Source: Styela clava
Lineage: Eukaryota
Assembly: GCF_964204865.1 (NCBI RefSeq)
Contig: NC_135252.1
Coordinates: forward strand, 1,178,001-1,242,000
Direction of reading: 5' to 3'
Length of the DNA stretch: 64,000 nucleotides
The translations under genes and the position numbers were made by a program. The notes below the pieces were generated by a model that saw nothing but the letters and a program-made list of their open reading frames with translations, was not told where the DNA came from and did no database searches. Shown in pieces: positions 10,966 to 17,861 of the stretch. Position 1 is the first letter of the stretch. Each line of letters starts with the position of its first letter.

Positions 10966-13166
10966 TGGCGCAATACGTTGTACGAGGTGATGTTGGTATA
11001 CTATGTATTAACAATCCACCGGTAAACGCATTAAGCATAAGAACATCTGAAGCTATGTTGAAGTGTATTGAAGCGTCTATGAAAGACCACACCGTTGGCT
11101 TGGTTTTATGCGGAACGGGTAAACAGTTTTCTGCTGGGGCTGATATAACGGAATTCGAAACATCCAATGAAGGAAGATTGACTGCGTTGATAGATGTAAC
11201 AAATGCTTTGGAAGCAAGCACTAAACCCGTTGTTGCTGCATTGCATGGATATGCACTGGGAGGCGGTTTAGAACTGGCACTTGCAAGCCATTATCGAATT
11301 GCTGAAAGTGGTGCAAGGTTTGGACTCCCTGAGGTAAAGCTGGGTATTTTGCCTGCTGCAGGTGGAACACAAAGACTCCCACGGCTCATCGGACTTGATA
11401 TGGCAATGGAGTGGATTTCTTCCGGAAAGGTATATTCAGCAGAACATGCAGCTCGTGTTGGGATCTTGGACCAAATAGTTCCAGATGGATCTGATATTGT
11501 AGATGCTGCAGTAAGGTTTGTAAAGGAGGCTGCAAAACAGTCTTTAACTGAAAGAAGATTGTCTTCTCTAGTTGTCAAAGATCGGCACCAAGTTGAAGAA
11601 ATTACCGCTAAGCATTTGTCATTGCTACATAAAAAATCTCGTGGGCAGATTTCTCCAATTGCTTGTATCCAAGCTGTTAGGTTTTCTGCAATAGCCGAAT
11701 TTTCTGAAGGGATGAAAAAAGAAGCTGAACTATTCAAAACACTTGTAACATCAGGTCAAGCTTCAGGGCTGATGCACTCCTTTTTTGCACAGAGGCAAAT
11801 ACGAAACTGGAGTGTGCCTTCGAATACCAGCATAAATTGGGCGACTTCTAACGCTATTCAAGTCAAGAAAGGTGCTGTAATTGGGCTTGGAACGATGGGT
11901 CGTGGAATTGCTATCAATTTTTTACAAGCAGGTATCCCAATATTTGCGATGGAACATGATGAATTATTGTTGGCATCTGGTTTAAAAAATGTACATGCAA
12001 TAATAGATTCAATGGCAAAACACAAAGTCATCACAGCAAACCAACAAGAAAAAATGAGAAGATCTATTCAAGGAACTATGTCATACTCTGACTTAAAAAA
12101 TGTAGATTTGGTGATCGAAGCTGTTATTGAAGAGATTGAGGCTAAGAAAAATGTTTTCCAAAGTTTAGACCAGGCATGCAAAACATCTGCAATACTTGCT
12201 TCAAACACGAGTGCACTGGATATTGATGAAATTGCTTCTTTCACACGTCGACCAGACAAAGTGATGGGAATGCATTTCTTCGCACCCGCAGATAGAATGA
12301 GTCTCCTAGAAAATGTTTATGGTGCTAAGACATCAGGTGAAACAATTGCAACTTGTATGTCAATGGGGAAGATTATGAAAAAAGTGACTGTACTGGTAGG
12401 AAACTGTTATGGCTTTGTTGCCAACAGAATGTATGTCAACTACATGGTTGAGTCTGATTTTCTCCTGGAAGAGGGCTGTTATCCTCAAATTGTTGACAGA
12501 GCAATAACTGATTATGGGTTTGCAATGGGTCGTTATTTGGTTGGGGATCTTTCTGGAAATGATGTACTATATCGTGTAAGACACGCCGCTGGATTAACAG
12601 TAGATCAACAACCTCAAAGGGCACCCATAAGACATAGGAATGGAAAGCGATATTGTCCTCTTTCAGATTATCTATATGCTAAAGGGAGATATGGTTTCAA
12701 AACAGGCAAGGGATGGTATGATTATGAGCAAGGTTCAACTGTGCCAAAATCTTCTCCGGAGGTCGTAGAAATGATTGACAATTATAGAATGGAAGTTGGT
12801 GTGAAACCACGTAGAATTGATCATGAGGAGATATTGGAGAGAATGCTGTACCCCCTTATCAACGAAGGGTTCAAATGTCTCGATGAAGGTTATGCGTCGA
12901 GCCCACTTGATATTGACATGGTTTGGATACATGGCTATACTTGGCCAAAGCATACAGGTGGGCCCATGTTCTATGCCCAGACTGTTGGGCTGCCAAGGTT
13001 GCTGGAGGTTATAGAAAAATTCCATAATAAATATGGTGATGGTGCTCCACACTGGCAACCTAGTGAAATGCTGATTAGAATAGTGAGAGAGTGCGGGAAT
13101 CCACCAATGGAGGAATGGATGCGCTATGCGAGAGGCCACATTAGTCTTTTGCAGAGCAGACTTTAA
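10965..13166 (+). CDS. EHHADH: Peroxisomal bifunctional enzyme (enoyl-CoA hydratase / 3-hydroxyacyl-CoA dehydrogenase), intronless CDS
   Basis: Crotonase motifs FSAGADI, GGGLELA and GLPEVKLGILP. NAD-binding VIGLGTMGRGIA, ASNTSAL and GMHFF. C-terminal GYTWPKHTGGPMFYA..GNPPMEEW resembles the animal enzyme; ends in PTS1 SRL. First ATG is 10965 (the ORF-track start at 10902 is TTG). Confidence 0.96.
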   Translation: MAQYVVRGDVGILCINNPPVNALSIRTSEAMLKCIEASMKDHTVGLVLCGTGKQFSAGADITEFETSNEGRLTALIDVTNALEASTKPVVAALHGYALGGGLELALASHYRIAESGARFGLPEVKLGILPAAGGTQRLPRLIGLDMAMEWISSGKVYSAEHAARVGILDQIVPDGSDIVDAAVRFVKEAAKQSLTERRLSSLVVKDRHQVEEITAKHLSLLHKKSRGQISPIACIQAVRFSAIAEFSEGMKKEAELFKTLVTSGQASGLMHSFFAQRQIRNWSVPSNTSINWATSNAIQVKKGAVIGLGTMGRGIAINFLQAGIPIFAMEHDELLLASGLKNVHAIIDSMAKHKVITANQQEKMRRSIQGTMSYSDLKNVDLVIEAVIEEIEAKKNVFQSLDQACKTSAILASNTSALDIDEIASFTRRPDKVMGMHFFAPADRMSLLENVYGAKTSGETIATCMSMGKIMKKVTVLVGNCYGFVANRMYVNYMVESDFLLEEGCYPQIVDRAITDYGFAMGRYLVGDLSGNDVLYRVRHAAGLTVDQQPQRAPIRHRNGKRYCPLSDYLYAKGRYGFKTGKGWYDYEQGSTVPKSSPEVVEMIDNYRMEVGVKPRRIDHEEILERMLYPLINEGFKCLDEGYASSPLDIDMVWIHGYTWPKHTGGPMFYAQTVGLPRLLEVIEKFHNKYGDGAPHWQPSEMLIRIVRECGNPPMEEWMRYARGHISLLQSRL

Positions 13167-14018
13167 AAATGTATTTGCAATGTTTATGTTAATCTATGCA
13201 AAATTAATTTACAATGCTCTTTCAAATACCTGTCTATATGCATTTGCCAATCAATTAAAAACAATTTTTTCCCACAGCTACAATAAATCCTTTTAATTCA
13301 CTGTAAGCAAGATAACATAATATATGGGTCTATAATCAGCATAAAAAAGATTTCAGTACAAACATTCAACCATATTGTGCATAGATTGTTCTGAATTTAT
13401 GAAATTAGTGTTATGCGCTGTATGATCGCAGCTGTCCAAACAAGCTACAGAGGATGCTATCTTGACCGATAATTTCAATATCAGGCAAAGAAAAATTGGA
13501 GGCATAAGAACCAGTTGGCTCACAGGACAAAATACCTAATATTCAGATCAGACCCACGATATGGTAAAAACACATGGAGAATTATTTCAAGGCGAAATAT
13601 CTAATACAGACAAAAAGGGACGTTTCTCCATCAATGATGAAATACTTTTATTAGTATGGTGGTATATAACAATATTTGTGAGAGTCCGGGAATATCTGAA
13701 TGCACAAGGAGAGCATCCATCAATTTTTTAGTTCACATTTCAGACTAAAATAGTCTTATCCAGATTCCATTTTATGCTGTTTTTCCTAACACTAATGTGT
13801 GTTTTTAGGGCAGATACTCTATATATATATCCTCAGTATGAATAGACCCTATGGCGACCAAACTCTTTATACGTCCATAAAGTTTTGTGAAATCGCCCAA
13901 ATACACAATTGAATATAAAAAATGTACTTAAATTATATTCTAGTCAGAAAAGATAAATATAATATTTCCTAGCACTGTCCACCATCAAAGCAGCACCCTT
14001 GAAACATTGATAAATTCG

Positions 14019-17000
14019 TCATTTTTTCGCATCCTTTTCATCAGTTTGTGCCATCTTTACTGCTTTTCCATATTTTGCATCAAAACCGAGGCCTAAATAA
14101 ACGCATAACTCATTTAAATTCACAAAGTTACATCACCAAGTATATAAATAGTACAAAACTGAATGATTTTAGATGGAATTATTCTTATATATTGTAAAGA
14201 CACCTCACCTGCAAATACCAACAATGCTCCAAACCACTGCAATGATGTCAACGGGTTTTGGAATAAGATAACAGAACCTAATATAGTGAAAAATTTTCTT
14301 GTTGTTGTTATGATTGAACAAGTTAATGGCCCAAAATACACAACCTGAGAAATAAATATAGGATTAGAAATGTATCAAGGTGTAAGTGTAGAGTAAATTT
14401 AATGCACATGTAAAAAATCTACTTACTGTTAAAAATATAAAGTGTTGTCCAAACGCTGATGTTAGACTGAACATTGCTAAATGGCTTATTACTTGCGGAT
14501 GCTTGTATATAAAACGAAAACATGCTAATCCTTGGCCATTGACGCAAAGAGCTGTGAAACACAAATATGATTTTAAGTGAAACAGTTATAACATAATAAT
14601 ATATTTTAAGATATAACAATCCAAGTGTGAATATACCCATGAAAAGCAATATTGTCGACCATAAGTTTACGTTGTACATCATGTGATGTTGGTTAGTGGA
14701 ATGCTTAGAACGCATGTTCTCCTGAGTAACTCCAGTTAGGCCATCGAGTGTAAGTGATATAATCTGAAAAACACGTTATGGGCTTTCATTCCATATGGTT
14801 TCATTAGGAAATTTGTTTAAAAATAAAAGTCAATATTTTTCTATATAATAGACGGTTATCGCACAAAAGTACTAATACTGAATGTACAGGGCAGGCTACC
14901 AAAGCAGATGGAACATATTTAGGTAAATTATTCACTATTCTTCAAACACTACAATTAAGTGTTATGCCAGTTATGAAATAATGCCCTCCTTAGAAAGCGA
15001 CAGCAGGTTATAATATCTTCTTGTGATATTTTCTGCAGCTAGGTTCAATGACTACCAATGTGAAACTGTAGTGCATTCAACAATATCTTACCAAAAGAAT
15101 TTCACCGTATCCAAAAACTGAATCACTGGTCGTCTTATTATTGTTTTCTTTATACATGAATGAAGCTACTCCAGCAACGATCATTAGAACACAAAAATAT
15201 TTCGCCAATGGATATCTCTTCTTTGCTAAAATAACCCCTAATATCATCACTGGTATAGGCTTACACGATTTACCTAAAACCTGCAATGAAATTTATGAAT
15301 GAAAGAGTAAAATGAAATAATGATAATGTATGATTTGAGAATAATTCTTAATTGAGATTTCAAAACAGTAATAACATAAAAAAATTTAACTTTTATATTT
15401 GTCTAATACTCGAATGTAAACAAAATATAGCCACTGCCAATAACTGGGATCTTTAAATTCTGTTATCCAATAATTAGCCTACCTGAGTTGGATAATTGAT
15501 ATATTGTAAAGCTTGGTTGCTCGCTACCATCGCTCCCATGTAACATACAGAACATGATGCATATAACATAGTTGGAGTGGAGTCGACACCAGGTCTGGTC
15601 ACAAAATGAGAAACTGTAAAATAAGATTCAATCTCAGACAATAACCAAATTGTAGCCTGTAAGCAAAATCATATCAACTACTTACTTAATTTTGCAAATA
15701 TGGCATTGACAATGCATTGGAAAAATACAAGTGCTTGTGGAAATATAAATCTTTCGCCATCATAATCGCCACGATTTCTGCAATAATAATGTGGTATTAA
15801 ATAAGTAACCATCTGTGGCGTAACAGTATCAAATTATTCCGTAACATGATAAACTTGGACTAAGTAAAAATTAGTGATTCGTATTAATAGGTTATATTAT
15901 GGAATTCTTTCAAAGTTTGCATAGTCCACCATACATGTTAACAAGCCAATTGTAATAAAGAAATGAGCATATACCGTAACTAAGTTGGTGAGTGTCAAAT
16001 GTCCAAGAATAATGTATATTATCAACTGTGATAACAAAAGTTAATGGGTGCATATATTTTTATGTACCAATAAGGCAATATCTACCAAATCCTAAAGCAA
16101 TGCAAAAATAGCTTCAACAGCCCCAAGTATATGTAACTTATGTTATGTCTGCATGTAGACTAGCTGCTTGTCCACAGTCATGTTCAGAATGAAAAGAACC
16201 CACATGATAAACTGGAAAAGCGAATACCAGAAGTGCTATTGAAAAAAAACGTACATTTTTTCTTGGCATAATCCAAATAGAAGATAGAGGAAGAATATGC
16301 CAAAAAAGCAGACAAGAAGACGCTCCGATGATCTGGTATCTATGGTGGGTGCCATTGTCTGGAAACAGCTGACTTATAGTAACGCCGTCCCACCGCGGAC
16401 GCCTTCGATCAATTAAAGTTATTTACCGATATTCCCAACTACTTTTCCTATCTCACAATTTGCAATAACTGGCTAGGGCATAAGCGTGCAAACACGACAA
16501 ACGCTAAGCAAGCATTGATTTGATACTCAAGCAATATTGCCAACACGCGCCAGACAAAACGTCATAATACTATTCAAGCATGTCGTTTACACGTCGAATT
16601 TTTGGAATCACTCGAGTGGATCGCAAATTGTCAAACTGGCTTGCGGCGCTGGTCGGTGACGGCGATAGCCGTTATTGTTTCAACCCTGTGCTGTTTGTTT
16701 ACGGTAAGTATCGGCGATTGAACGCAATTGCACTTCAGGCAACTTGATGTGAAAGTTTATTCACAATATTTCGCTTTCGAGTATGTTGGCTATACATATA
16801 TATGGCGGAGATAAATATTCAATAGCTTTCAATACTTACAAAACTTCTTGTAAAATTCCGTACATAAGATAAAATACGAATATTCCAGTGGCATAGCAAA
16901 TCAGCTGAGGTATTTGGTGTTGCCTTGAATATTTCGTCGCTTGAGGAGACAGGTACTTTTCTACCATTCGATCCAAAATGTGGCTTAAATCGAGAAACCA

Positions 17001-17099
17001 TATTCGTTTTTCCGATGCTGTCGACGTAAGACCGTTTGCACTGTCGCCATGTATTGCAACGATCTGATATTCCGATGAATCGGGCTCAACTTTCATCAT
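14019..17099 (-). CDS. SLC35B1: Solute carrier family 35 member B1 (UGTrel1/AXER), spliced
   Basis: Exon 1a 17099-16840 or 1b 16355-16255, then 15777-15686, 15613-15483, 15280-15092, 14763-14637, 14551-14427, 14344-14209 and 14092-14019; all GT-AG and in phase. Motifs [56 protein letters not shown]; Lys-rich tail. Confidence 0.95.
16255..16355 (-). CDS. SLC35B1: Alternative first coding exon 1b of SLC35B1
   Basis: [33 protein letters not shown](I). Phase-2 donor GTACGT matches exon 2; encodes TM1, homologous to the end of exon 1a. Confidence 0.85.
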
Positions 17100-17861
17100 C
17101 TTTTTCAATATGAAATAGAGATATACAATCGTCCACGACGCATAACTGTAACTGCTATCGAATCACAATATGAAAATATTGATTAGTAACAATGACAACT
17201 TGAAACTCAGCTGCGAGTACTGATTTAATGGTCGCCCGTTCCACTTGAGCTGCGATCGATATCGAGAGGAAATTTGCTATCTAACGGTTATCCCGAGTGT
17301 ACGCAACAATACCGTCTTCTTTTTGAATATTGTACTTGAATCGTTTTCGTAAATCCATCAGGGAAACTATATTATTATCGCCACGGTCGCTTTCGTCATG
17401 TGGCTGCCCGAGGCCATGAAACTAACAATCCTAGGGTGGGATGCGCCGTGCGTTGCTGTTTAGTCGAAACCTTAGAATACATATTCTAATGCTTACCATA
17501 TATCTGAAGCAAAAACGGGATAGTGCGGATTGGACAAGCCAACCTTGGTTCGATTCCAGAGGCTTAGTACGGTAAAAGTTTACATGTTTTCCATACCATT
17601 GTGGGTAGATAACGGGCATCAAAATCAGCTGTAAATCCTATTAAAATATCCTCTATTCTTCTATTGGTCTTAGAAGACTTGGACTTTGTTTTCCGGCATT
17701 TTGATAATTTACCGACAGTACAGTTGATTGTTGAATGAACGCATGGTTCATACTTCATACCAATAACATAATAATTTTCTTCTCTATCTCAACTAGTGAA
17801 GTGAGAGTGGTGAATCGGCTGCATCCGTTTAAATAAAACAATTTTGTGATAGTATATAATT

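Follow-up and report, generated by a model that had tools for sequence, protein, structure and literature searches.

Two paralogous first coding exons give the Styela clava SLC35B1 transporter alternative first transmembrane helices, a pair also found among proteins of other tunicates

The window, that is, the whole stretch of DNA that was analysed, comprises 64,000 nucleotides of the Styela clava genome (assembly GCF_964204865.1, contig NC_135252.1, positions 1,178,001 to 1,242,000), and an SLC35B1 gene on its minus strand has two candidates for the first coding exon, 1a and 1b. In human cells, the SLC35B1 protein is essential and is the route by which ATP enters the endoplasmic reticulum (ER) (PMC12267056). 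Each of the two first exons encodes a first transmembrane helix (TM1), and residues are numbered throughout as in human SLC35B1, the register being set by the match of exon 1b to human residues 13-34. The parts of the gene are the following.

17100..17302 (-): transcribed leader of exon 1a; upper end approximate, from contig ends
17099-16840 (-): exon 1a coding part, 260 nt, 86 codons + 2 nt, with a phase-2 GT donor at 16839; a cytosolic tail of ~64 residues, then the long-type TM1 (TM1 core 16907-16842)
16356..16540 (-): transcribed, unspliced leader of exon 1b; upper end approximate; holds an AG at 16360-16359
16355-16255 (-): exon 1b coding part, 101 nt, 33 codons + 2 nt, with a phase-2 GT donor at 16254; an 11-residue tail, then the short-type TM1 (TM1 core 16322-16257)
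15686..15777 (-): exon 2, the first shared exon, starting at 15777 after AG; its single acceptor is used by both first exons
15483..15613 (-): shared exon 3, from RNA contigs and frame check
15092..15280 (-): shared exon 4, with the K117/K120 region and a Pfam UAA match (E 1.6e-12)
14637..14763 (-): shared exon 5, from RNA contigs and frame check
14427..14551 (-): shared exon 6, from RNA contigs and frame check
14209..14344 (-): shared exon 7, with the R276/K277 region
14019..14092 (-): last coding exon, shared, with the stop codon, from RNA contigs and frame check

Joined to the seven shared exons, exon 1a gives an open frame of 377 aa and exon 1b one of 324 aa, all introns are GT-AG, and the two products are identical to the RefSeq S. 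clava isoforms X1 and X2 (XP_077966481 and XP_077966482; P0121 and P0001). An earlier note, made from the letters alone, had proposed these exon coordinates and frames, with an ATG of its own for each first exon and phase-2 donors matching exon 2, and all of this agrees with the sequence. A genome search returned one match each for exon 4 (15092-15280) and exon 1a. Small upstream open reading frames are also present in the leaders: one of 12 codons, out of frame, runs from 17143 (-) in the 1a leader and overlaps towards the 1a start region, and two of 3 and 2 codons lie at 16515 and 16481 (-) in the 1b leader. Immediately upstream of exon 1a, at 17491-17569, there is a short repeat of high copy number (depth ~2000-2500 vs 61, DNA-like run X10).

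Thirteen sequencing runs were listed, and the contigs of seven of the nine RNA-like runs, from three studies, and of one of the four DNA-like runs were examined; "RNA-like" is a guessed label, no run being recorded as RNA, and is backed by the GT-AG joints. The joint 15777/16255, from exon 1b to exon 2, occurs in all seven RNA-like runs, and the joint 15777/16840, from exon 1a to exon 2, in five of them, the other two carrying exon-2 letters loose at 16840. The DNA-like run X10 has no joint, and one of its contigs extends across 15881-17554. Both first exons are thus spliced to exon 2, rather than only one of them, and one exon or the other, not both, precedes the shared body in the seven runs, both joints leading to 15777; a joint from 1a to 1b is absent among the joints listed in these runs, whose contigs drop rare forms. 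The term "mutually exclusive", which the earlier note had applied to the two exons, does not hold in the strict sense, since they share no upstream exon and each has its own ATG and unspliced leader, and alternative first exons are excluded from strict mutually exclusive splicing as it is treated in PMC8373072. Splicing of 1a onto the AG before the 1b ATG was considered and rejected, as the frame meets a stop after 92 codons. With a second AG, at 16370-16369 (-), as acceptor, 1a would be joined to 1b in frame and the protein would have two TM1s; no such joint is listed in the seven runs.

The contigs containing exon 1b end at 16460, 16477, 16477, 16492, 16536, 16603 and 16808 in the seven runs, five of these ends falling within 16460-16536, while the listed ends of contigs with exon 1a lie at 17079-17302 in six runs and at 17514 in X6. 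Coverage of ~16540-16840 is low or absent in most runs, and one X2 contig together with low-depth pieces in X1, X3 and X5 covers the interval between 1a and 1b; given this coverage and the scatter of the 1b ends (16460-16808), part of the 1b RNA may begin farther upstream. The ratio of observed to expected CpG reaches 1.61 at 16541-16839 and 1.50 in exon 1a, the gene body having 0.58, and high CpG has been reported near start sites in Ciona (PMC3333190). Contig ends and CpG profile are compatible with two starts, although contigs cannot show start, strand or level, and from them we infer two promoters, an upstream one at ~17.2-17.3 kb for the 377-aa form and an internal one at ~16.5 kb for the 324-aa form. 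A scan for the ER-stress elements ERSE, ERSE-II, UPRE and AARE found none in 17700-17100 or 16839-16356, and only one short ACGT core. The depth of 1b relative to 1a contigs ranges from ~1.2:1 (joints of X5) to ~20:1 (X6), ratios that are not taken as tissue regulation because depth in contigs gives no ranking of the parts within a gene.

The AG three bases upstream of the 1b ATG had been regarded as compatible with spliced-leader (SL) trans-splicing. The AG is there, at 16360-16359, but its use by the main 1b form is not supported: in all seven runs contigs cross it unspliced and run 100-450 nt beyond, and no loose ends at 16358 are among those listed. Such reading through the AG indicates that the main 1b RNA has an unspliced leader and is not an SL trans-spliced transcript at this site; a small share of trans-spliced RNA may have gone unseen in the contigs. 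The 1b contigs of X5 and X6 end at 16460 and 16536 in loose letters (31 and 122, respectively), which match nothing in the examined stretch and do not lie at an AG, and are possibly allelic insertions or library artefacts.

Paralogy of the two exons over TM1, as the earlier note had proposed, is well supported. A TM1 profile built from 99 distinct homologues, with the window's own two proteins left out, was run over the 34,865 stop-free 22-mers of the six-frame window, and exon 1b ranked first (46.1 bits) and exon 1a second (34.1 bits); the third-best 22-mer scored only -20.3 bits, so that the window holds no third TM1 copy. The TM1 parts of 1a and 1b share 38 of 68 nucleotides and are 41% identical over 22 residues, so that two adjacent homologous coding exons are present, as in N-terminal tandem exon duplications. 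A one-residue gap placed by a pairwise aligner at 17-18 of the S. clava long form was rejected because a gap-free register suits all eight long copies of the tunicate set. Exon 1a alone has no Pfam match, no match among PDB sequences and none among 23 longer candidate proteins, and an ESM Atlas search with the long N-terminus gave no result. A HMMER search of representatives with exon 1a gave three matches, of which P0145 is a true relative, the S. clava tail being 42% identical to it over most of the exon (E 5.3e-9); P0146, an unrelated repeat protein, and P0147, which has no aligned stretch, were rejected. Polymorphisms in the first exons, namely T4N and one silent change in 1b and R44Q in 1a, spare both TM1 cores and are too few for a selection test.

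The identity of the gene as SLC35B1, with the ten-helix DMT fold of the UAA family, likewise stands, on the Pfam UAA match to exon 4 and on structural comparison. With the model of the long isoform, the top seven Foldseek matches are human SLC35B1 (E 2.7e-24 to 5.5e-21), and the next family follows at 4.9e-9; the structural alignments to the human protein have 57-61% identity, with a TM-score of 0.96 over 9gs5. Structure models, which the earlier note had named as a check, come from AlphaFold and contain a full TM1 in each isoform, at residues 59-89 of the long one (mean pLDDT 82.6, with a low-confidence tail) and at residues 8-36 of the short one (mean pLDDT 85.9). Nineteen nucleotide-binding or gate residues were taken from PMC12267056 and placed on the S. 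clava proteins by way of marmoset P0190, with human numbers (Y25, E33, R37, N109, Q113, K117, K120, D183, Q190, R194, Q254, I257, F258, V261, C269, T273, R276, K277 and N290), and both S. clava isoforms keep all 19 unchanged. Seventeen of them fall in shared exons; the swapped exon contributes Y25 and E33 alone, neither of which varies among the 20 tunicate TM1s. PMC12267056 describes for human SLC35B1 a single bundle of TM1-TM2 with TM8-TM9. At the ribose, Q254 is supported by Y25, and the Y25A mutant has no activity; in the luminal gate, E33 forms a bond with N290, and the E33A mutant is shifted to the lumen-facing state. Since all 19 residues are kept, both isoforms are likely, as far as their sequences tell, to be ATP/ADP exchangers, and a change of substrate between them, one of the consequences that the earlier note had drawn from the duplication, is not favoured.

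Long and short isoforms are also found together in other tunicates, with 380 and 318 aa in Clavelina lepadiformis, 364 and 322 aa in Ciona intestinalis, and two pairs among plankton sequences (P0211/P0150 and P0215/P0154). After TM1, the body of the long form matches that of the short form at 290/291 residues in S. clava, 287/288 in Clavelina, 291/291 in C. intestinalis, and 286/286 and 279/286 in the plankton pairs. Outside S. clava the evidence for the pair consists of protein sequences. Long-only records come from Phallusia, P0218 and the fragment P0145, and short-only ones from C. savignyi and six other proteins. The pair is therefore present in five tunicates including S. clava, and the TM1 set, with one row per cluster and type, holds eight long and twelve short TM1s, after P0002, P0031, P0048, P0125, P0129, P0130, P0156, P0208-P0210, P0212-P0214, P0216 and P0217 were left out as near-duplicates or for want of a TM1. 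P0209 and P0210 stop two and one residues after QEK, respectively, ends that hint at genomic DNA read past the same donor and would fit it. Judged at the protein level, both copies are conserved across tunicate species, and neither of the two exons appears to have been left without purifying selection.

The long and short TM1s group by type rather than by species. TM1 identity is 52% between long copies, 65% between short copies and 40% between long and short (36-50% within species), and in a TM1 tree of 22 columns the long clade (88/90) and the short clade (76/79) have moderate support. Constrained trees that unite the two Clavelina copies (p-AU 0.0155) or those of the stolidobranchs (p-AU 0.042) were rejected, and with them independent duplications in Clavelina or in stolidobranchs. 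A single tunicate TM1 clade was neither rejected nor established (p-AU 0.134, on 22 columns). Position 26 is L or I in 8/8 long copies and L in 9/12 short ones (L or I in 17/20 tunicate TM1s), against F in 156/157 non-tunicates, and this shared change points to one duplication on the tunicate stem, which the change would predate. Both exons are thus likely to descend from one duplication in a tunicate ancestor.

In the tree of the body, which supports all tunicates together at 100/99, the stolidobranchs lie on one side and Clavelina, Phallusia, Ciona and the plankton clade on the other. The plankton sequences we infer to be thaliaceans, because their place in this tree matches that of thaliaceans in PMC5899321, where the split of these tunicate lineages is dated to 389 +/- 32 Mya. 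As the pair recurs in Clavelina, Ciona and plankton tunicates, it is likely to be older than this split of ~390 million years ago. Among the homologues no appendicularian sequence was identified, so this age is a lower bound. Two metagenome scans yielded no genomic contig from a tunicate: the one with P0211 returned no relatives, and the one with alignment A5 returned 80 loci, 40 of them with a long frame, none of these 40 falling in the tunicate clade. Long-type and short-type TM1s are put forward as a candidate shared character of non-appendicularian tunicates.

Four TM1 columns (17, 18, 28 and 31) fully separate the eight long from the twelve short copies, a number reached in 0 of 20,000 label shuffles, in a test that ignores relatedness. 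Position 17 is Y in 8/8 long copies and C in 12/12 short ones, C being also found in 155/157 non-tunicates. At position 18 the long copies have A, S or G and the short ones F in 11/12, with one T; F is present in 138/157 non-tunicates. Position 28 is Y in the long (8/8) and F in the short copies (12/12), with Y in 153/157 non-tunicates, and position 31 is L, I or V in the long copies and in 157/157 non-tunicates, as against A, C or S in 11/12 short copies, with one F. Each copy thus retains part of the common state at these positions and alters the rest. A hand count of 36 non-tunicate metagenome TM1s found Y17 with A18 in nine and F28 in eight, which marks these as tolerated variants that need not change function, while a small residue at 31 was seen in 0/157 non-tunicate proteins and, by the same hand count, in 0/36 metagenome TM1s, so that the short exon bears the more unusual state. 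The G22/S24 and Y17 pattern seen in the long TM1s from plankton recurs in two non-tunicate homologues, L033 and L039, a sign that they may have converged on the same alternative packing.

The difference that the earlier note had singled out, K versus V at the GxxQEK motif, is not the one that sets the two types apart, since position 34 is variable in the family (among 157 non-tunicate TM1s, 81 have T, 49 have K and 21 have S) and K occurs in 3/8 long tunicate copies. In the main text of PMC12267056, K34 has no occurrence and Y28 was searched for and is absent. Side-chain facing was read from a helical wheel only; on it, position 18 falls within 20 degrees of Y25 and position 28 within 60, positions 17 and 31 are lateral, and position 34 is 180 degrees away.

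The reading that we consider probable is that the gene makes two ATP/ADP exchangers with the same substrate, which differ in TM1 packing and hence in rate or in the balance of the gate, are chosen by promoter and carry different cytosolic tails. Transcription from the upstream start would include exon 1a and give the 377-aa form, and that from the internal start would include exon 1b and give the 324-aa form; as the choice would be made at the start of transcription, no exon-exclusion mechanism would be needed, and the promoter would decide which version is made in a given tissue or stage. Y25 and E33, on which the nucleotide site and the luminal gate rely in the human protein, are kept in both TM1s. 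The differences adjoin these two residues, the long TM1 having Y17, a small residue at 18, Y28 and an aliphatic one at 31, and the short TM1 having C17, mostly F18, F28 and mostly a small residue at 31, and they would alter how TM1 packs in the moving TM1-2/TM8-9 bundle; we propose that altered packing changes the rate or the inward/outward balance. Human SLC35B1 also occurs with a 37-residue tail or without it, and the two forms are reported in PMC6113206 to be similar in transport in E. coli or liposomes, which argues against a tail acting directly on the carrier.

That each type has held its own residues for ~390 million years after the split (8/8 and 12/12 at positions 17 and 28), and that the small residue at 31 of 11/12 short copies is matched in neither the 157 non-tunicate proteins nor the 36 metagenome TM1s, speaks against a second explanation, which we regard as rather unlikely, in which only regulation is at stake: two promoters would put a long or a short tail on an essential gene, and the TM1 differences would be compensatory changes in packing that became fixed early in either copy, with no effect on transport. 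This explanation draws on the 19 of 19 checked functional residues common to both isoforms, on the presence of Y17-A18 and F28 in non-tunicate homologues, on the lack of a transport effect of tail length in the human protein (PMC6113206), and on the tails of 43-78 residues that precede TM1 in 8 of 14 outgroup proteins and make a long tail ordinary.

A bolder form of the reading with two exchangers, which we hold to be unlikely, would see the ~400-million-year-old TM1 duplication as a two-state device, with a standard ER exchanger on one side and, on the other, one whose gate has another set-point and whose tail directs sorting, supplying ATP to, for example, the Golgi; if this is true, nature itself would have performed a TM1 swap with which the stepwise mechanism of ATP translocation could be probed. 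It is quite improbable that sorting is the whole matter, with the long isoform sent elsewhere (Golgi or later), or its tail binding a regulator, so that one gene serves two places. Of the long tails 4/8, and of the outgroup tails 0/8, contain a YxxPhi or acidic dileucine pattern (Fisher p 0.077), but the motifs are absent from the Ciona, Clavelina and two plankton tails; the S. clava tail resembles P0145 over most of exon 1a, as given above, yet long tails, of 25-70 residues, are not alignable across orders; and a low-confidence helix is predicted at residues 33-50 of the long form, although no more than 2/8 long tails have a best amphipathic helix that outscores shuffles (p < 0.05), the S. 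clava tail giving p 0.12. Moreover, the C-terminus, where PMC6113206 places the ER-retention dilysine of mammals, is common to both isoforms. A difference in substrates, such as adenine nucleotides versus UDP or a nucleotide sugar, through K34/V or other TM1 residues, seems to us very improbable, for although Y25 of TM1 contributes to the site (PMC12267056), positions 18 and 28 lie near it on the wheel, and selectivity can move, UDP and UTP being reported in PMC9010763 as counter-substrates in an NDP/NTP exchange broader than that of PMC12267056, position 34 varies across the family, is K in 3/8 long copies and faces away from Y25, and the residues that bind phosphate and base are encoded by shared exons.

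Human SLC35B1/AXER (PDB 9GS5, 9I20) is orthologous to the S. clava protein by sequence and fold, with the 19 residues in common, and it too has a long and a short N-terminus; nevertheless, the human long form adds its 37 residues before the same TM1 (PMC6113206), whereas S. clava swaps the whole TM1 for a paralogous copy. As a class of event, N-terminal tandem exon duplication is known. In human, 39-40 of 236 events are substitutions derived from such duplications and arise from alternative promoters, according to PMC8373072 and PMC9741552, surveys of human genes whose main text has no occurrence of "SLC35". These events, with the protocadherin and UGT clusters among them, resemble the present case in their homologous N-termini on a shared body, their alternative promoters, and their ancient and conserved character, but S. 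clava SLC35B1 has two copies and no array; the human N-terminal events, moreover, are described as mostly solvent-exposed, whereas in S. clava the exchanged part is a core helix, within the moving bundle of a carrier with ten helices. The S. clava gene adds a core-helix example to a small class of duplicated first exons.

Duplicated exons swap part of a solute carrier also in SLC12A1 (NKCC2; exons 4a/b/c) and SLC25A3, and those of SLC12A1 encode a membrane helix and tune affinity. The SLC12A1 exons are, however, internal and mutually exclusively spliced, as given in PMC8373072, while in S. clava the duplication is at the first coding exon and requires no exclusion by splicing. The isoform sequences themselves are already in databases as automatic models, RefSeq holding both isoforms as X1/X2 for Clavelina (XP_076824161/162), C. 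intestinalis (XP_002125771/XP_009858933) and S. clava, under names that, as seen, carry no note on paralogy, conservation or function. A literature search, from which most subscription papers were out of reach, found no description of twin TM1 exons in SLC35B1. Two versions of TM1 on an identical body, likely kept since ~390 Mya, make a matched pair for questions of TM1 gating and rate, and direct attention to positions 17, 18, 28 and 31.

Downstream of SLC35B1 and on the opposite strand, at 10899-13166 (+), the window has an uninterrupted frame of 755 codons for an enoyl-CoA hydratase / 3-hydroxyacyl-CoA dehydrogenase bifunctional enzyme, which ends in SRL, a peroxisomal-type signal; its coding part is without intron, in a region of genes with short introns. 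RNA contigs of 3963 and 3012 letters begin in SLC35B1 exon 2 and far exceed the remaining coding part, and coverage goes past 13500. To judge from these lengths only, the transcripts of SLC35B1 (-) and of the bifunctional enzyme (+) may share sequence at the 3' end, within ~10870-14019. A further frame of 244 codons, at 206-937 (+), resembles a retrotransposon integrase fragment.
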